From a virus: a stretch of DNA of 64,000 nucleotides. Below are positions 15,171-63,087 of this stretch, piece after piece. The translations under genes and the position numbers were made by a program. The DNA lies in the IMG/VR virus record IMGVR_UViG_3300024262_000018, positions 32,001 through 96,000 of that record. One strand, written 5' to 3'. The notes below the pieces were generated by a model. That model was not told the DNA's origin. It saw only the letters and a list, made by a program, of their open reading frames with translations, and did no database searches. The number at the start of each line of letters is the position of its first letter. The first letter of the stretch is position 1.

Positions 15171-15284
15171 AATTTTTCTCCTGTATCTATTTATATTCGT
15201 TTTTTTTAACAAAAACCTTTTTACAAAAAAAATATTAAAATTTTCCTAAATGGCTAAACCGAAAAAAATAATTTTATTTTTTTA

Positions 15285-15313
15285 TTGCTTTTTTTAAGCA
15301 TCATGACTATAAT
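15285..15313 (+). promoter_or_regulatory. sigma70-type promoter of tRNA array 1
   Basis: TTGCTT-17 bp-TATAAT with AT-rich UP region; same hexamers as 60957..60985. Confidence 0.75.
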
Positions 15314-15318
15314 GTTAT

Positions 15319-15392
15319 AGCGGTTGGGTGAAACAGATAATCATGCGAGCCTCATAAGTTCGAGATAGCAGGTGCAACTCCTGTAGCCGCAA
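15319..15392 (+). tRNA. tRNA-Met(CAT), possibly initiator
   Basis: cloverleaf, loop CTCATAA, 1:72 mismatch; CCA not encoded. Confidence 0.85.
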
Positions 15393-15416
15393 TTTTACAA
15401 GGTTTGGAAATTTGCC

Positions 15417-15482
15417 ATGAATAATAACATTATATTCTTCGACGCCCCAGCAAATGCCCAACCTGATCCCGCGCAGATATAA
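15417..15482 (+). CDS. putative attenuator leader peptide MNNNIIFFDAPANAQPDPAQI
   Basis: 21 aa ORF; 11 of residues 9-20 are D/A/P/Q, matching downstream tRNAs; overlaps alternative hairpins. Confidence 0.7.
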   Translation: MNNNIIFFDAPANAQPDPAQI

Positions 15483-15537
15483 TCTATATCTTGCGGGATT
15501 CATTTCTTTTCTTTCCTTAAAATGTTTTCCCGCGAGA
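15465..15537 (+). promoter_or_regulatory. mutually exclusive hairpins (putative attenuator)
   Basis: 15465-15481 pairs with 15485-15500; alternatively 15489-15498 pairs with 15528-15537 (10 bp). Confidence 0.65.
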
Positions 15538-15578
15538 ATTCCCTGCGTTGTTTGAAAAGTTAATAAGAGTTTATATTA

Positions 15579-15652
15579 CGGAGTGTGGGCTAACGGCTGG
15601 CCGCCAGTTTTGGGAACTGGACATCGTGGAGGTTCGAATCCTCTCACTCCGA
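15579..15652 (+). tRNA. tRNA-Pro(TGG)
   Basis: CGGAGTG/CACTCCG acceptor, CCAGT-TTTGGGA-ACTGG, GGTTCGAATCC. Confidence 0.93.
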
Positions 15653-15758
15653 TTATAATGCAGTTCACGCCTCTTTTGGGTGAAAGTTCAAATACCCCAA
15701 AGGAATGTGTGAAAAATATACGAATATACTATAGAAACTTTTTATAAAGGAATATGGT

Positions 15759-16541
15759 ATGAAAGTGACATGTGACCAATGTAAAAAAGAATTTGAAAGA
15801 ACTGAAAGAAAAATAAGGATATATAAAACGCATTTTTGTAGTAGAAAATGCCATACTGATTATGTAAAACAGCACAGTACATATACTGAAGAAAAGTGTT
15901 CACATTGTGGAGAAAGTGTTTTCAGGAATAACGGCCAAAAAAAGAATAGTAAAACTGGCATTTATTTTTGTGGCAAGTTATGCCAAAATAGATATTTGGC
16001 AAAAAAATCAAAACTACACATAAATCCCTTTAGCCACCAAAGACGCAAAAAAAGAGTTCTTGAAAAGGCGAATTATACTTGTCAAAAATGCGGATACAAC
16101 AAAGACAAAAAAATGCTAGACATACACCATGCAGACAAAAATCATCACAACAATGCTTGGGACAATTTAAGATGTATATGTTCATGGTGTCATACCAAAC
16201 ATCATAGAAATGTTGAAGAAATAATCGGTCTTTTATCATTATTTGAAAGCACAATAGAACAAGAAAAAATTTTTACCAAAGAGAACAAAAGATATAGAAT
16301 ACCAGATGGACCCAAAAAGTCTGAACTAAATCCAAATTGGAGAAATTCTATTCGACCTAACCAAAGAAAAGTAGAACGTCCCTCTAAAGAAGAATTAGAG
16401 AAATTGGTTTGGGAAAAATCTACAGAAAAAATAGCAAAAGATTTGGGAGTTAGTGGAGTAGCAATAGCAAAATGGTGCAAAATATATGGAATAACAAAAC
16501 CGCCTAGAGGTTATTGGGCGAAAAGATACGCAGGAAAATAG
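15759..16541 (+). CDS. HNH homing endonuclease with Zn ribbons and C-terminal HTH
   Basis: CxxC repeats, LDIHHADKNHHNNAWDNLRCICSWCHTKHH, C-terminal KPPRGYWAK. Confidence 0.88.
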   Translation: MKVTCDQCKKEFERTERKIRIYKTHFCSRKCHTDYVKQHSTYTEEKCSHCGESVFRNNGQKKNSKTGIYFCGKLCQNRYLAKKSKLHINPFSHQRRKKRVLEKANYTCQKCGYNKDKKMLDIHHADKNHHNNAWDNLRCICSWCHTKHHRNVEEIIGLLSLFESTIEQEKIFTKENKRYRIPDGPKKSELNPNWRNSIRPNQRKVERPSKEELEKLVWEKSTEKIAKDLGVSGVAIAKWCKIYGITKPPRGYWAKRYAGK

Positions 16542-16546
16542 CATTC

Positions 16547-16617
16547 GGGGCCGTATTTCAACGGGAGAATATTTGTTTTGCACGCAGAAGATGTCAGTTC
16601 GATTCTGACCGGCTCCA
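16547..16617 (+). tRNA. tRNA-Ala(TGC)
   Basis: GGGGCCG/CGGCTCC with G3:U70, loop TTTGCAC. Confidence 0.92.
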
Positions 16618-16620
16618 TAA

Positions 16621-16693
16621 GGTCTTATAGTGTAATGGTTTATCACGCAAGATTGTCGATCTTGAGATCGGAGTTCAATTCTCCGTAAGACCG
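16621..16693 (+). tRNA. tRNA-Asp(GTC)
   Basis: GGTCTTA/TAAGACC, CAAGA-TTGTCGA-TCTTG, G73. Confidence 0.93.
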
Positions 16694-16777
16694 TTTAACA
16701 AAGTGCATCTATTTCGCATATCGTGTAGAGGCGAAACTTAATTGGCAAGGTTGCCTCCGTTAAAAAGGAAGAACAAA

Positions 16778-17772
16778 ATGACTAGATACAAAGAAATTGA
16801 AGAAGCAATCAAAACAACAGAGAAAATGATATCAAGCATTGAATGTGATCGTAATTTCGATGGACCTGCGACTATTAAACAAATTTTAGAAAATCAAATA
16901 ATAATTATAAAATTACTTTATTATTCTAAAAACCAATCAACAACAACTATAGAGATGGAGGCATAATATGAAACTTTATTTTTTAGATAAGTGGGGATGG
17001 CCTGTTGAAAGAATTAAAGGAAGATATGTTGTTAATTTTTTACGTCTTTTAATTTATACGCGAAAAATAGCAACAAAAAAGCAATGGGAGACGCGACTTA
17101 GTAAGCATATGAAAAGGATAAAAGCAGGCGAAGGAGGTTCATGCTCACAACAGGTAATAGAAACAGATAGTAAAAAAACGGAGGAGAAGCTCAATGGTTG
17201 ATTTAGGACCAGTAGAAGAAGGATATCTAACTGAAAATGAAGCAAAAGCCCGTGCGCAGATTGATATTAAATATTATAAATTATATTGCATAAAAGAAAA
17301 AATAGTAAAAGATCTTCTGCTTAAAGTCGCATTAGAAAAAATGTTTAACGAAATAGAAACAAGTAACGAAGGGCGGCGATGGACGGAAGCAGAAATTAAA
17401 GAAAAATTAGATCAATTCGTCGGAGTAGAACTTTTATATTATTGGGAGAACAAATACGATGAAAGAGACTACATCGCTATCCATTGAAGAAATGGAAAAT
17501 ATAAAATGAAAATTAGCGGTCCCATACAAATATTTGAAACATATGACGAAGCCATTGATTTTTTATATAAACATATTAAAACATATGACTTATCTTATAT
17601 TTCAGAAGATATAAAAAAAGATATTTTACATGATGCGTCTGGACCTGTTCACTTTAATATTCTGCTTAGGCACACAGAGTGGGCATCAAGCGATATAAAA
17701 AATGAATGTGATAGACAAGTAGGCTGGAACCTCTTAAGATATTTAGAATGGAAAGCAAAAAATGAAAAATGA
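16778..17772 (+). CDS. run of four small hypothetical proteins (16778-16966, 16968-17201, 17194-17487, 17506-17772)
   Basis: contiguous short ORFs with SD-like sequences. Confidence 0.5.
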
Positions 17773-18112
17773 CGAATCAATGACGCTTAAAAAACTAAAA
17801 GAAATTATAAAATGGGAAACTGATCGACTTACTAAGGCTCGTCCTGGCTCAAAACGAGATCATATTTTTTGGGCAACATTAAAAATTTCAGAAGAAGTTG
17901 GAGAAGTTGTCGAGCAGGTTTTAGCCTCAGAAGGTTTTCAAAGACAACCCAAATTAGATGCTTACAAAAAGGAACATCTTAAACACGAAATTGCTGATGT
18001 TCTTTTAGTCACAATGATTTTAGCAGAACGCTTGGGAATCGATATAGAAGAAGCATTAAAAGAGAAGATAGAGATAGTAGAAAAAAGGACATACGAAGAA
18101 TATAATACATAG
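17762..18112 (+). CDS. mazG: MazG-like nucleotide pyrophosphohydrolase
   Basis: KISEEVGEV...HEIADVL motif. Confidence 0.85.
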   Translation: MKNDESMTLKKLKEIIKWETDRLTKARPGSKRDHIFWATLKISEEVGEVVEQVLASEGFQRQPKLDAYKKEHLKHEIADVLLVTMILAERLGIDIEEALKEKIEIVEKRTYEEYNT

Positions 18113-18143
18113 GATCAACACTATTTTTACAGAATATTAAATT

Positions 18144-18201
18144 ATGAATATATACATAAAACACATTCTCCCCTTCCTTTGAGTTAGTTCAACTTAAAGG
18201 A
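18144..18201 (+). promoter_or_regulatory. uORF MNIYIKHILPFL with SD-sequestering hairpin
   Basis: uORF 18144-18182; 11-bp stem 18175-18185/18191-18201 covers the AAGGA SD of the gene at 18210. Confidence 0.55.
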
Positions 18202-18209
18202 GACACAAT

Positions 18210-18650
18210 ATGGGAAGTTTTAGGCACCCAAGGACTCAACAAGAAAAAAGGCAGAATCAGAATTGCGAATATTGTCGTCCTGCACGAAGACCTCATAATC
18301 TGATAGACGCTTGGGATGATGATCGTAAACATACTGACAAATGTTGGAAGAACTACAGAAAAACTCAATATAAAGTAAAAGCCCTTCCTAAAAAGAAAAA
18401 GAATAGTTCTTCTTTCGCAAAATCTATGGAGAATAAAGATCATTGGCATTTAAATCACAGATGCCAATATTGGTGTCATCGTCGTTTTTACGAAAATAAA
18501 TGCAAAGGCTGTGAAGATAGAGAATTGAATAGAAAAGAATATGAGCAAAGAGAGTTTAAAAAATTGCAGGCTCAATATGCGTTAGAACAAAAAGAGCGTC
18601 AACGAGAATGGAATAAAGAGTGTTACGAGTATTATTGGCATGGAAACTAA
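18210..18650 (+). CDS. basic Cys/His-rich hypothetical protein
   Basis: 146 aa, AAGGAG SD. Confidence 0.65.
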   Translation: MGSFRHPRTQQEKRQNQNCEYCRPARRPHNLIDAWDDDRKHTDKCWKNYRKTQYKVKALPKKKKNSSSFAKSMENKDHWHLNHRCQYWCHRRFYENKCKGCEDRELNRKEYEQREFKKLQAQYALEQKERQREWNKECYEYYWHGN

Positions 18651-18978
18651 AAAACAAAAACTGAAAGAATTAAGAAGATTATTTAGAGAACAAGTTCTTA
18701 AAAGGGACAATAACCAATGCGCATTTTGCGATTGCAAAGAAGATCTTGATGCTCATCATATAACAAATAGAAATTATATGCCCATGTATGGATATGTAAT
18801 CTCAAATGGGATAACATTGTGTAATGCTCATCATGCGTTAGCAGAACATTATTCTAGAGCAATTCTTAAAGAAAGTATGGAAGAGTTTTCGCCAGAGAAC
18901 TTATATAAAATAATTGATTCCTCGTATGACAAAGCATTATCAGATTGCGTAAAATTAGAAGAAGGAATTATAGGGTAA
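18640..18978 (+). CDS. small HNH endonuclease
   Basis: RDNNQCAFC...LDAHHI...NGITLCNAHH. Confidence 0.85.
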   Translation: METKKQKLKELRRLFREQVLKRDNNQCAFCDCKEDLDAHHITNRNYMPMYGYVISNGITLCNAHHALAEHYSRAILKESMEEFSPENLYKIIDSSYDKALSDCVKLEEGIIG

Positions 18979-18984
18979 TAAATT

Positions 18985-19055
18985 GGGCTCATAGTGTAGC
19001 AGTAGCACGAAACACTTTGAATGTTTTAGCTCCGGTGCAAATCCGGGTGAGCCTG
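18985..19055 (+). tRNA. tRNA-Gln(TTG)
   Basis: GGGCTCA/TGAGCCT, AAACA-CTTTGAA-TGTTT, G73. Confidence 0.88.
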
Positions 19056-19066
19056 TTAATGTGACT

Positions 19067-19105
19067 AGGGCAGTAGCTTAGTTGGTGGTAGAACACGGCT
19101 TTGAA
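19067..19105 (+). pseudogene. 5' half of a disrupted tRNA (Gln-like)
   Basis: AGGGCAG + D-arm + CGGCTTTGAA; complementary acceptor strand CTGCCCT at 20533-20539. Confidence 0.65.
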
Positions 19106-19114
19106 TATATAAAA

Positions 19115-19486
19115 ATGAAAATACATCCAACTAAAATAACTGAATATCCATATTGGCAGGAAGACTCACCAGAAAAAACGATGAGTGCTTCATACTCAGG
19201 ATACTATAGCATTTGGCCCGACAATGAATATAACGACTGTTCGTTTATTTCTAGTGGATTCAATTTCTCTGGTAATATTGTTATAGCCCTTCGACCAGGT
19301 GGGAATCAAACAGACGGTGATGTTTTTGTAATTTGTAATGGTGACAAATGGGAATCCCCCTCTGGCTATCATCTATCTCATTTTAAGATTTCTGGGGAAA
19401 GATTAAATGCAGACATGTTAGCTCAAAATAGCGGATGTACATATGAATATATACGAAAGACAATAGAAAAAATAATCTGCAAATAA
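19115..19486 (+). CDS. hypothetical protein
   Basis: likely start MKIHPTK; the track's GTG start lies inside the tRNA fragment. Confidence 0.5.
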   Translation: MKIHPTKITEYPYWQEDSPEKTMSASYSGYYSIWPDNEYNDCSFISSGFNFSGNIVIALRPGGNQTDGDVFVICNGDKWESPSGYHLSHFKISGERLNADMLAQNSGCTYEYIRKTIEKIICK

Positions 19487-19490
19487 ATAT

Positions 19491-19573
19491 AGAGTGGTAG
19501 AATAATTGGTAATTCACTGGACTTTGAATCCAGGTCCGAAAGGATAATGAAGGTTCAAATCCTTCCCACTCTA
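19491..19573 (+). tRNA. tRNA-Gln(TTG) with long variable arm
   Basis: AGAGTGG/CCACTCT, CTGGA-CTTTGAA-TCCAG, V-arm GTCCGAAAGGAT. Confidence 0.85.
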
Positions 19574-19586
19574 TTATAATATTTAT

Positions 19587-19669
19587 AGAGCGATAGAGTA
19601 ATTGGCAACTCACCGGACTCTGACTCCGGACTCGTAAGGGTATTGAAGGTTCAAATCCTTCTCGCTCTG
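19587..19669 (+). tRNA. tRNA-Gln(CTG) with long variable arm
   Basis: AGAGCGA/TCGCTCT, CCGGA-CTCTGAC-TCCGG, V-arm ACTCGTAAGGGT. Confidence 0.85.
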
Positions 19670-19756
19670 TTAAACAAATATTTAGTTTCTTGAAGGAAAT
19701 AGCGTAAAGAGTTAGTATGTATTATCACGCTACGTTATTTGCTAAGGAATTATAAA

Positions 19757-38480: not shown

Positions 38481-38552
38481 GCTCATATCCGCTAACTGGT
38501 AAGCGAAAAGACTCTAAATTTTTTAATCGAGGTTCGAGTCCTCGTATGGGCG
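38481..38552 (+). tRNA. amber suppressor tRNA (anticodon CTA)
   Basis: GCTCATA/TATGGGC, D-stem CGCT/AGCG, AAAGA-CTCTAAA-TTTTT, CGAGG-TTCGAGT-CCTCG, G73. Confidence 0.85.
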
Positions 38553-60956: not shown

Positions 60957-60985
60957 TTGCTTTTTTACGTTCTCCTGCCTATAAT
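60957..60985 (+). promoter_or_regulatory. sigma70-type promoter of tRNA array 2
   Basis: TTGCTT-17 bp-TATAAT. Confidence 0.75.
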
Positions 60986-61014
60986 CTTGTGAACAGCGAT
61001 AAAGGCTAAGTTTT

Positions 61015-61122
61015 ATGAATAACATTCAAAACAACTCAACTCAGAACAACGGGACTCTCGTCCTGTCGTCCCTTTATTGTTTATCTGGGCACTCTTTGTC
61101 CCTCGGCTATTATAGTCTATAA
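61015..61122 (+). CDS. putative attenuator leader peptide MNNIQNNSTQNNGTLVLSSLYCLSGHSLSLGYYSL
   Basis: 16 of last 21 residues are L/S/Y; all six Leu codons used; downstream tRNAs are Tyr, Leu x3, Ser x3. Confidence 0.75.
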   Translation: MNNIQNNSTQNNGTLVLSSLYCLSGHSLSLGYYSL

Positions 61123-61179
61123 GACTAGCTTGAGCCGGACACAAAACTCTCTTTTTATTCCCGGCTCGGGTCATTTTTT
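61102..61179 (+). terminator. attenuator: antiterminator/terminator pair
   Basis: 61102-61109 pairs with 61126-61134; alternatively 61128-61138 pairs with 61161-61171 (11 bp) followed by CATTTTTT. Confidence 0.7.
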
Positions 61180-61201
61180 GAAAAATTAATATGAGTTCTA
61201 T

Positions 61202-61285
61202 GGGTTGGTTGAGCAACTGGACGCTCTGGCGACTGTAACTCGTCCGTCCGAAAGGACATTGCAGGTTCGAGTCCTGTCCAACCCG
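61202..61285 (+). tRNA. tRNA-Tyr(GTA)
   Basis: GGGTTGG/CCAACCC, loop CTGTAAC, V-arm. Confidence 0.9.
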
Positions 61286-61292
61286 GTGATAT

Positions 61293-61382
61293 ACCCTTGT
61301 AGCAGAATTGGCTTATGCGATTGACTTAAAATCAATTGAGGAGTATAAACTCCTCGTGTGGGTTCGACCCCCGCCAAGGGTA
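61293..61382 (+). tRNA. tRNA-Leu(TAA)
   Basis: ACCCTTG/CAAGGGT, ATTGA-CTTAAAA-TCAAT, long V-arm, A73. Confidence 0.9.
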
Positions 61383-61388
61383 TTACTT

Positions 61389-61476
61389 GCTCCTGTGGCG
61401 TAATTAGCAGCCGCGCTAGGTTTAGACCCTAGTGGGAATATCAAATCCCGTGCTGGTGCAACTCCAGTCAGGAGTA
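61389..61476 (+). tRNA. tRNA-Leu(TAG)
   Basis: GCTCCTG/CAGGAGT, CTAGG-TTTAGAC-CCTAG. Confidence 0.9.
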
Positions 61477-61483
61477 CTTATCT

Positions 61484-61569
61484 GCCCCTTTGGTGTAATT
61501 GGAAGCCACGATAGTTTCAAGAACTATTGCACTTTAACGTGCGTCTCGGTTCGAGTCCGGGAAGGGGCA
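61484..61569 (+). tRNA. tRNA-Leu(CAA)
   Basis: GCCCCTT/AAGGGGC, ATAGT-TTCAAGA-ACTAT. Confidence 0.9.
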
Positions 61570-61613
61570 TTTATATATTTTTCGCGCAAAATTATTTTCA
61601 AAGTGTAAAACAG

Positions 61614-61698
61614 GGAAAGTAAAGTTCATAGGTTGAGCCACCGTCTGCTAAATGGTTGGAGTGAGAAATCGCTTGTGTTTCGATTACACTGCTTTCCG
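61614..61698 (+). tRNA. tRNA-Ser(GCT)
   Basis: GGAAAGT/GCTTTCC, loop CTGCTAA, V-arm, G73. Confidence 0.85.
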
Positions 61699-61714
61699 TT
61701 AATTAGGAAATAAA

Positions 61715-62296
61715 ATGAAAAAAGAACATTTTGATTATGGTTCCTATAAGAAATATATAAACCGCCAAACTAAGCTAGCCTCTCAAACAGTTTTCAAAAC
61801 TCTTAGAGATAAGAAGTTTATCGAAGAAAGAGTTAAAGATCTCCTATCTCTTTATCCTAATTATAAAAATGTTTTATGCTTAGGATCTAGACATCCAGTA
61901 GAAGTGGAAGCGTTTTTAACTGCTGGTTGTTCTGCTATAGGTATTGATCTTTTTGAAACGCTACCACATATTATAAAATGCGATATGGCGAAGATGTATG
62001 AAAACTCAATACTTCGAAAAAGAAAACCATTTGATATCATATATATGAGCCATTCTTTAGAACATTGTTTAAATATCGAAGGGCTATTACAAGGAATTCA
62101 ATGGAGTAATGCGACAGTCTTATATATAAGAGTTCCTATAAAGAATAAACCTGAAAAATGGGATTGCACATTATTAGAATTTATGCTTCCAGATGGTAAT
62201 CCCAATACGATAGAAGAATTATTTACCGGATGGACTCTTAAGGAGTTTACTCCGCTAAGTAATGAAAAGATTTTTATTTTAGAAAAGAGGAAATAA
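61715..62296 (+). CDS. class I SAM-dependent methyltransferase
   Basis: VLCLGSR..GIDL..CD..FDIIYMSHSLEH. Confidence 0.8.
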   Translation: MKKEHFDYGSYKKYINRQTKLASQTVFKTLRDKKFIEERVKDLLSLYPNYKNVLCLGSRHPVEVEAFLTAGCSAIGIDLFETLPHIIKCDMAKMYENSILRKRKPFDIIYMSHSLEHCLNIEGLLQGIQWSNATVLYIRVPIKNKPEKWDCTLLEFMLPDGNPNTIEELFTGWTLKEFTPLSNEKIFILEKRK

Positions 62297-62297
62297 A

Positions 62298-62609
62298 ATG
62301 TCAGCATATTTTGTAGATTTAGATGGAACATTGTTTGAGTTTGGCACAGATATCTTCTTGCCAGGGACTAAAGAGTTTTTAGAGTTTATTAAAGAAAACA
62401 ATCATCAACTTATACTAACAACTAGAAGGGGCGATTGGAGTGGGGTTTTTTCAAAAGAAAGCACTTTAAAAGCCCTTAAAGATCATGGTATAGAATATCA
62501 TAGTATTATTTTTGGAGTTGATAGTCCTAGAATTGTTGTGAATGACGACGGATGCTCAGCTATTAATGTTATAACTAATATTGGTATGGAGAAAAAAGAT
62601 TATGAATGA
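62298..62609 (+). CDS. small HAD-superfamily phosphatase
   Basis: FVDLDGTL, LTTRR, VNDD. Confidence 0.8.
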   Translation: MSAYFVDLDGTLFEFGTDIFLPGTKEFLEFIKENNHQLILTTRRGDWSGVFSKESTLKALKDHGIEYHSIIFGVDSPRIVVNDDGCSAINVITNIGMEKKDYE

Positions 62610-62817
62610 GATTAAAATTGAATTTAAATCAAAGAGATATGGAGATACATTAGATGTCGGATATGGATATTCCAATAGCGAGGTTTTTGAAGGAGAGTTA
62701 AAAGAAGTTATTCGCAGGCTAGTTGACATAGACAAAAAATGTTATAAATATAATAAAGTAAATGTTTCTGTTGACCTTGTGGACGGGTATATAGAATTTA
62801 TTGGAATTAAAAATTAA
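62602..62817 (+). CDS. hypothetical protein
   Basis: likely start MNEIK. Confidence 0.5.
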   Translation: MNEIKIEFKSKRYGDTLDVGYGYSNSEVFEGELKEVIRRLVDIDKKCYKYNKVNVSVDLVDGYIEFIGIKN

Positions 62818-62825
62818 TAATAACT

Positions 62826-62911
62826 GGATGAACTGGACATCGGTGAGTCCACTTGTTTTGAAAACAAGCAGGCCCGAAAAGGTCTTGGGGGTTCGAATCC
62901 CTCTTCATCCG
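62826..62911 (+). tRNA. tRNA-Ser(TGA)
   Basis: GGATGAA/TTCATCC, CTTGT-TTTGAAA-ACAAG, V-arm, G73. Confidence 0.9.
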
Positions 62912-62915
62912 GTAT

Positions 62916-63002
62916 GGAAGAACTGGGTATTTAGCGAACCCACTCGTCTCGAAAACGAGCAAGCCTGAAAGGGTTTTGAAAGTGCGAATCTTTCTTCTTC
63001 CG
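62916..63002 (+). tRNA. tRNA-Ser(CGA)
   Basis: GGAAGAA/TTCTTCC, CTCGT-CTCGAAA-ACGAG, V-arm, G73. Confidence 0.9.
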
Positions 63003-63087
63003 TTTAATTAATAAAATATAAAAATATTGAGTTGTGGCGTTTAAAAAGTTATAAAGAGGTATAAAACTTTGATGTAGGAGAAAAACT

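Follow-up and report, generated by a model that had tools for sequence, protein, structure and literature searches.

A leader peptide codon-matched to the tRNA array behind it is a probable transcription attenuator in a giant phage

Leader-peptide attenuators that respond to more than one amino acid are known from enterobacteria, where thr (Thr and Ile) and ilvGMEDA and ilvBN (Ile, Leu and Val) are controlled in this way, and the trp attenuator of Escherichia coli is built from a pause hairpin (1:2), an antiterminator (2:3) and a terminator (3:4). Here we describe a locus in a 64,000-nucleotide stretch of DNA (the window), bases 32001-96000 of the IMG/VR virus record IMGVR_UViG_3300024262_000018, in which a comparable arrangement stands ahead of a block of transfer RNA (tRNA) genes for Pro, Ala, Asp and Gln. 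As in thr and ilv, a short promoter-proximal open reading frame (ORF) is packed with the codons of several amino acids, and folds that exclude each other involve its 3' end, the choice between them depending on ribosome position in our modeling. Phage tRNA genes are usually discussed as helpers for codon usage or as spares against host defenses that cleave tRNA, and to our knowledge the control of their expression is largely unknown. We put the probability at roughly 0.6 that the region 15285-15578 is a ribosome-mediated attenuator heading the Pro-Ala-Asp-Gln block of a giant phage.

The source record is a single contig of 113,959 bp with 35% G+C and about 36 tRNA genes. CheckV estimates its completeness at 26%, and it is therefore a fragment of a very large phage. 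Coordinates are window positions unless marked as contig positions. Genes point leftward as far as 15212 and rightward from 15285, which makes the locus a divergence point. The promoter that the original prediction, made from the letters alone, had placed at 15285 is present with the hexamers and spacing it gave, and both recur identically at 60957. The same prediction called the gene that follows tRNA-Met. A tRNA with anticodon CAT is indeed encoded there, scoring 38.1 bits in a focused Rfam tRNA search (E 1.7e-6, gathering score 29) and called by ARAGORN at a relaxed threshold, having been absent from the default ARAGORN output and from the Rfam gathering run; it may be of the Met, initiator or Ile2 type. 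Pair 1:72 of this tRNA is mismatched in the Rfam alignment. The gene starts 6-7 nucleotides (nt) past the -10 hexamer, at the expected transcription start, and hence the transcript may lack a 5' leader and not require cleavage by RNase P.

The leader ORF (leader 1) opens 104 nt past the -10 hexamer and 25 nt past tRNA(CAT). Counting its codons bears out the earlier description of a 21-residue peptide in which 11 of the 12 residues at positions 9-20 are Asp, Ala, Pro or Gln, with synonymous codons used for all four. The genes behind it are likewise those that had been predicted, namely tRNA-Pro(TGG), tRNA-Ala(TGC), tRNA-Asp(GTC), two copies of tRNA-Gln(TTG) and one tRNA-Gln(CTG), and leader 1 samples all five of the distinct anticodons in this array. 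The region upstream of its start codon that resembles a Shine-Dalgarno (SD) sequence can pair with codons 14-16 (15399-15462), and the two sister leaders described below show similar pairing of the start region with a 3' portion of the ORF; such pairing would restrict translation to the nascent transcript. Coordinates are collected in Table 1.

The match between leader and array is far beyond chance. In leader 1, 11 of 20 residues belong to the Asp/Ala/Pro/Gln set, where the composition of the phage proteome predicts 3.9 (binomial p 4e-4). A six-frame reading of the whole 114-kb contig gives 685 ATG-initiated ORFs of 15-45 codons, among which it ranks first for this set (p 1.4e-5), the runner-up reaching 1.1e-3. 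An automatic pipeline without hand-picking returned leader 1 and its two sisters as the top three of 29 candidates, and of the six possible assignments of the three leaders to the arrays the correct one scores best, matching 52 of 77 residues when the mean over permutations is 25.7.

Each of the two sisters stands before a tRNA block of its own. The leader near 61 kb (leader 2), which the original prediction had cited as an independent parallel, has 35 codons and is rich in Leu, Ser, Tyr, Cys and Gly; the array behind it (61201-63003) encodes Tyr, three Leu, four Ser, Cys and Gly tRNAs. It ranks second of 685 for its set and samples all 10 array anticodons, and the parallel is thereby upheld, shared promoter included. 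It had been suggested that other arrays of the genome be inspected for matching leaders; a third unit stands just outside the window, and its promoter, TTGCAT-17-TATAAT, is a close variant of the other two. The first 19 residues of its 24-codon leader (leader 3) are drawn exclusively from the 11 amino acids served by the tRNAs that follow (His, Trp, Phe, Asn, Arg, Lys, Val, Glu, Ile, Thr and Met), every one of which is used; this leader is the top-ranked of the 685 for its set and covers 14 of the 16 anticodons. No amino acid is shared between the three sets, which together make up all 20 (4 + 5 + 11), and the view that two loci with disjoint sets make coincidence unlikely is strengthened by a third. 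No further leaders were found inside any of the three arrays. As a side observation, tRNA(CAT) is the only tRNA repeated across the blocks, one copy preceding leader 1 and the other closing block 3. A 114-nt tRNA-like gene at contig 99665-99778 scores 33 bits in Rfam; its anticodon region carries a long insertion, and it may be an intron-bearing or disrupted tRNA.

Leaders 2 and 3 carry ordinary intrinsic terminators, that of leader 2 having been missed by the automatic finder and inspected by eye, and that of leader 3 being strong and bidirectional. Another terminator follows the last tRNA of array 3. Viewed co-transcriptionally, at the stage when the terminator still lacks its 3' arm, the antiterminator of leader 3 holds the 5' arm of the terminator at all ribosome positions up to the last regulatory codon and collapses within one to three codons beyond it; the last five codons of leader 3 are off-set and coincide with the zone in which a ribosome melts the antiterminator. 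In leaders 1 and 2 alike, the matching codons extend through the strand-1 region. The final nine codons of leader 2 (61093-61122) all specify residues of its set though a ribosome there covers the antiterminator strand, and the classical attenuation model leaves these codons unexplained. A pyrimidine-rich stretch past the stop codon is common to all three leaders.

The pattern is repeated in an unrelated giant-phage contig, IMGVR_UViG_3300027749_000039 (G001; IMG/VR, 190.6 kb, 31% complete, 45 tRNA matches). Because the leader-1 locus is without relatives, this contig was sought with the second HNH gene of array 1 as bait. Its promoters are of the TAnnTTTG type, which we take to be a form found in Bacteroidota, and its host is therefore quite different. 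Within the 60 kb examined, seven short ORFs (bases 129000-173000) are each followed by a terminator and then by tRNAs matching the dominant amino acids of the ORF. The first four sets are His/Trp/Phe/Ser/Lys, Ser/Arg, Tyr/Glu/Gly/Ala and Leu/Ile/Arg/Val/Asn/Thr/Cys; the remaining three are Leu/Met, Asp/Pro(/Gln) and a run of five Gln codons ahead of three tRNA-Gln genes. The correct pairing of leaders with arrays is the unique best of 5040 permutations. Leader content tracks array content across the two genomes: the Asp/Pro/Gln leader of G001 is without Ala and its array is without tRNA-Ala, and at 15285 Ala occurs in both. All seven terminators are canonical, with a stem and U7-9, one of them (leader d) missed by the automatic finder and inspected by eye. 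In five of these leaders the antiterminator holds the terminator 5' arm until the last regulatory codon and collapses 1-3 codons later. Two CAT tRNAs lie between the promoter and the His/Trp/Phe/Ser/Lys leader, so that the placement of tRNA(CAT) upstream of the switch, to which the original prediction had drawn attention at 15319, recurs in this unit. The same pipeline was empty in two other tRNA-bearing contigs (best p 0.008 and 0.24). Yersinia phage fHe-Yen9-03 was set aside as a comparison, its tRNAs being scattered singly. Five G001 leaders begin Met-Lys-Asn, and leaders 1 and 2 begin Met-Asn-Asn; this suggests that an A-rich start region may aid initiation.

Leader 1 can adopt two folds that exclude each other. 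Hairpin 1:2 has 16 bp and a folding energy of -19.5 kcal/mol, which was equalled in none of 500 dinucleotide shuffles; its 5' arm, strand 1, consists of codons 17-22 of the ORF, stop included, and the stop codon lies in its loop. The alternative 2:3 structure, at -18.5 kcal/mol (equalled in 6 of 500 shuffles), joins strand 3 to strand 2 through a 10-bp helix. This layout, with strand 1 at the end of the ORF, strand 2 just past the stop, a pyrimidine-rich loop and then strand 3, agrees with what had been proposed from the sequence, and so does the accompanying caveat that the U-rich run follows 1:2 rather than 2:3. It is the only U-rich tail in the leader; it is broken by C and is similar to the tail of the terminator closing the third array.

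Constrained folding of the leader region, proposed with the original prediction as a check, gives a clear switch that depends on the ribosome in our footprint model. With A-site codons 1-12, strand 2 is predicted to pair with strand 1 (P 0.82-0.87), and with A-site codons 14-22 it is predicted to pair with strand 3 (P 0.58-0.81). The flip falls at codon 13/14 and coincides with the Asn codon interrupting the regulatory codons. The modeled probability of hairpin 1:2 drops from 0.9 to 0 for A-site codons 17-22, and the free RNA, without a ribosome, favors 1:2.

These elements would operate as follows in the attenuator that we favor. Host RNA polymerase would start at the sigma-70-type promoter and make tRNA(CAT) first, outside the control of the switch. 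The 21-codon leader would be transcribed next, its codons 9-20 to be read by exactly the tRNA species encoded downstream. Its last six codons would then form the 5' arm of 1:2, with the U-rich tail behind, and the 3' arm of this hairpin could pair alternatively in 2:3. A shortage of charged Asp, Ala, Pro or Gln tRNA would hold the ribosome on codons 14-20, where it would cover strand 1; 1:2 could not form, strand 2 would be captured by strand 3, and transcription would continue into the tRNA genes. Upon quick decoding the ribosome would depart, 1:2 would form and transcription would stop, either at the U-rich tail or through loading of Rho on the exposed pyrimidine tract. The net effect would be feedback in which slow decoding of their own codons, and nothing else, leads to synthesis of these tRNAs. 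At leader 1 the anatomy, the match of codons to the array and the two exclusive folds are shown; that the leader is translated, that transcription terminates and which way the response runs are inferred. The classical geometry of leader 3 and of the five G001 leaders supports read-through upon stalling at the level of the class. We consider a codon-matched leader attenuator to be well supported for the class and probable for the 15285 locus; the claim that the latter is a second, independent case of a leader peptide matched to its own tRNA array holds up in the statistics, in the complete anticodon coverage, in leader 3 and in the seven G001 leaders.

Several observations weigh against this mechanism at leader 1. 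Strand 3 is transcribed only after the U-rich tail of 1:2, and hence 2:3 forms too late to spare that polymerase a stop at 1:2. By simple kinetics, any ribosome following closely would block a terminator that has its 5' arm within the ORF, and this would give the opposite polarity. A stall on codons 9-12 leaves 1:2 intact in the footprint model, and the best candidate for a 3:4 terminator is not credible at -3.3 kcal/mol. Since the U-rich run follows 1:2 and no 3:4 hairpin is convincing, any polarity and termination type read from the sequence of leader 1 are tentative. Equilibrium folding of leaders 2 and 3 favors the terminator wherever the ribosome is placed; their antiterminators, visible only when folding is viewed co-transcriptionally, must therefore act kinetically. 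The GC-rich stem forces part of the Pro and Ala content at codons 18-19. The SD-like motif of leader 1, a GGA 11-13 nt upstream of the ATG, is weak; similarly weak and distant motifs precede many genes of the same phage. Finally, no homologs of leader 1 were found in viral, metagenome or genome collections.

Three readings remain for leader 1: a 1:2 terminator occluded by a stall on codons 14-20, a trp-like switch acting with Rho, and a coupling sensor of reversed polarity. The last of these takes its precedent from pyrBI and pyrE of E. coli, in which the terminator is overlapped or closely preceded by the leader ORF and a ribosome blocks the hairpin. Applied to leader 1, 1:2 would be an intrinsic terminator with its 5' arm in the ORF; a ribosome keeping pace would allow read-through, and one delayed on codons 2-12 would arrive late and transcription would stop, the tRNA block being expressed only while translation runs well. 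Such a sensor would account for 1:2 being the only hairpin with a U-rich tail, for the stop codon in its loop, by which a ribosome at codons 14-22 always occludes the hairpin, and for 1:2 surviving stalls at codons 9-12. It would, however, create a positive feedback of no obvious use and give no role to the seven matching codons 14-20 or to the 2:3 fold, and leader 3 and five G001 leaders are classical, with a stall preserving the antiterminator; we think it improbable. A Rho-dependent stop seems to us somewhat less remote, if still unlikely. It would keep the same sensor and make 1:2 a pause site that synchronizes polymerase and ribosome, as in the trp leader. Once the ribosome finished, 1:2 would re-form, the tract and strand 3 would be single-stranded and Rho would load; with a stall on codons 14-20, 2:3 would block loading. 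The near-equal energies of 1:2 and 2:3, the flip at codon 13/14, the lack of an intrinsic 3:4 terminator and the pyrimidine-rich stretch past the stop in all three leaders are consistent with this, as are the base counts of the tract (12 C and 5 G in the 45 nt from 15501 to 15545), which is a possible Rho loading site. The tract is short, however, and its C-richness modest; the reading presupposes a Rho factor in the host, and leaders 2 and 3 rely on ordinary intrinsic terminators.

That the ORF arose by chance, the hairpin being an ordinary terminator or RNA-processing signal between the tRNA(CAT) gene and the next transcription unit, is already disfavored, and we regard it as very improbable. 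Short ORFs are common at 35% G+C (the 685 above), Pro and Ala tend to be encoded by GC-rich stems, and no homologs of the 15285 locus were found in the collections searched. Against this stand the ranks of the three promoter-proximal ORFs (1, 2 and 1), their anticodon coverage (5/5, 10/10 and 14/16), the repetition of the pattern in seven G001 units with a unique best pairing, and the empty pipeline controls. We give practically no credence to the notion that tRNAs are sensed by codons of the leader RNA pairing with their anticodons, free of the ribosome as in a T-box, or that the peptide is itself the functional product. Complementarity between leader codons and array anticodons would be expected from direct sensing, but a search of 15200-15760 against Rfam with E up to 10 found neither a T-box nor any curated leader family (His, Thr, Leu, Trp, Phe leaders and others), returning only tRNA and a chance snoRNA match (E 7.2), and one specifier loop cannot read the five to sixteen tRNAs of each leader. 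A functional peptide is hard to reconcile with leader sequences that are wholly different, the A-rich start being their sole common feature.

Table 1. Positions of the features at the 15285 locus, in the tRNA array behind it and in the two sister units (window coordinates unless marked contig)
Feature	Position	Strand	Basis or remark
Sigma-70-type promoter	TTGCTT 15285-15290, 17-nt spacer, TATAAT 15308-15313	+	Sequence
tRNA, anticodon CAT	15319-15392	+	Focused Rfam search and relaxed ARAGORN; upstream of leader
Leader ORF, 21 codons and TAA, ATG start	15417-15482	+	ORF reading
Regulatory codons 9-20	15441-15476	+	Asp 2, Ala 4, Pro 3, Gln 2, Asn 1 (codon 13)
Hairpin 1:2	15465-15500 (5' arm 15465-15481; 3' arm 15485-15500)	+	16 bp, -19.5 kcal/mol
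Pyrimidine-rich, G-poor tract	15501-15527	+	U-rich tail of 1:2; loop of alternative 2:3
Strand 3	15528-15537	+	10-bp helix with 15489-15498 of strand 2
tRNA-Pro (TGG)	15579-15652	+	ARAGORN, Rfam
HNH homing endonuclease gene, within array	15759-16541	+	
tRNA-Ala (TGC)	16547-16617	+	ARAGORN, Rfam
tRNA-Asp (GTC)	16621-16693	+	ARAGORN, Rfam
tRNA-Gln (TTG)	18984-19056	+	ARAGORN, Rfam
tRNA-Gln (TTG) and tRNA-Gln (CTG)	19490-19670	+	ARAGORN, Rfam
Sister unit 2	60957-61181 (promoter 60957-60985, leader 61015-61122, terminator 61128-61171 and U6)	+	
Third unit (promoter, 24-codon leader, terminator)	contig 98941-99138 (window 66941-67138)		Just outside the window

Among the tRNA genes of array 1 lie HNH endonuclease genes, a MazG-like gene and small genes of unknown function, and no clear terminator was found beyond 19670 that would close the block. 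The last two tRNA-Gln genes are about 85 nt each and have long variable arms, which is unusual for Gln. Elsewhere in the window, a solitary tRNA of the amber-suppressor type (anticodon CTA, 38481-38552) has no leader ORF ahead of it, and large ORFs read normally with table 11. The region separating tRNA blocks 2 and 3 (contig 96946-98926) holds genes for a CoaB-like (DFP) and a CoaC-like flavoprotein, the second of which carries a fused M23 peptidase domain, and a calpain-like protease, a radical SAM protein and a metallophosphatase are interspersed with the tRNAs.

Other searches for relatives of the locus gave little. Viral contigs held no match to an exact 24-mer of tRNA(CAT), to the neighboring 750- and 256-residue proteins or to a back-translated pattern of the regulatory peptide, and genome contigs held none to the hairpin sequence. 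Relatives of the 750-residue protein on JGI contigs (44-59% identity) have no tRNAs nearby, nor do the contigs carrying relatives of the first HNH gene have any. The GenBank phage collection gave matches only at single tRNAs.

Beyond the single locus, the whole tRNA complement of this phage may form three regulons that cover the 20 amino acids, each gated by a multivalent leader that lists its own isoacceptors, sensing a failing pool of charged tRNA and replacing the missing set. We hold it slightly better than an even bet that this is so and that it represents a general class not previously described. The phage would then gauge the charged-tRNA pool of its host separately for each codon family, for instance in the wake of tRNA-cleaving immunity or host shut-off, and the same logic would operate in phages whose hosts have quite different promoter types. 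A leader that lists its own array would sense decoding speed directly and tie tRNA supply to it, a classical mechanism put to a new purpose. It predicts that depletion of a single tRNA species induces only the array with its codons in the leader. Such leaders could serve as compact, programmable parts for synthetic biology, and they offer a simple annotation rule for transcription units in tRNA-rich giant phages.

Full-text literature searches returned no paper on leader-peptide control of tRNA genes; we found no published account of attenuation of tRNA genes in the manner of the trp operon, and the present case would be the first such control that we could find. The pheU and pheV genes of E. 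coli, considered as a possible precedent with a Phe-rich leader, were discarded, for in the K-12 sequence a promoter directly precedes each tRNA and no leader ORF is present. A likeness in setting is offered by the trn operon of Anabaena PCC 7120, a long tRNA array that is silent until translation is impaired and is adjoined by an HNH endonuclease gene (PMC8421152). The phage block, as we read it, would likewise be an accessory tRNA array induced by translational stress, and it too has an HNH gene. Its control, however, is by a protein repressor, TrcR (PMC10272220), and unlike the phage locus it has no leader peptide, attenuator or terminator mentioned in these accounts (PMC8421152, PMC10272220).

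In architecture, leader 1 most resembles the known attenuators of enterobacteria. With trp it shares regulatory codons in or just ahead of strand 1, a stop codon between strands 1 and 2, and a 1:2 pairing that excludes 2:3; it departs from trp in having its U-rich run after 1:2, a negligible 3:4 and four amino acids instead of one. Its likeness to pyrBI and pyrE is that its only terminator-like hairpin has the 5' arm in the ORF and is abolished, in the footprint model, by a ribosome at codons 14-22. Those leaders, unlike leader 1, sense uridine triphosphate by polymerase pausing and have no matched codons, and they respond to ribosome speed in the opposite sense to a starvation sensor. Rho-dependent leader control is known from the tna operon and from the proline-codon leaders of mgtA and mgtCBR in Salmonella. 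There, as in one reading of leader 1, translation of the leader decides whether a G-poor tract past the stop is exposed; the tract of leader 1 differs in being short, and a role for Rho is putative. T-box riboswitches sense uncharged tRNA directly, upstream of aminoacyl-tRNA synthetase genes. They too tie leader control to the state of specific tRNAs and act on a terminator, whereas leader 1 is without T-box structure, would sense many tRNAs at once by way of translation and would control tRNA genes instead of synthetases. Set beside thr and ilv, leader 1 has neither a match to an Rfam leader family nor a 3:4 terminator; it is carried by a phage, it would regulate tRNA genes in place of biosynthetic enzymes, and the set of amino acids it would sense equals the roster of its array down to the anticodons of the isoacceptors.

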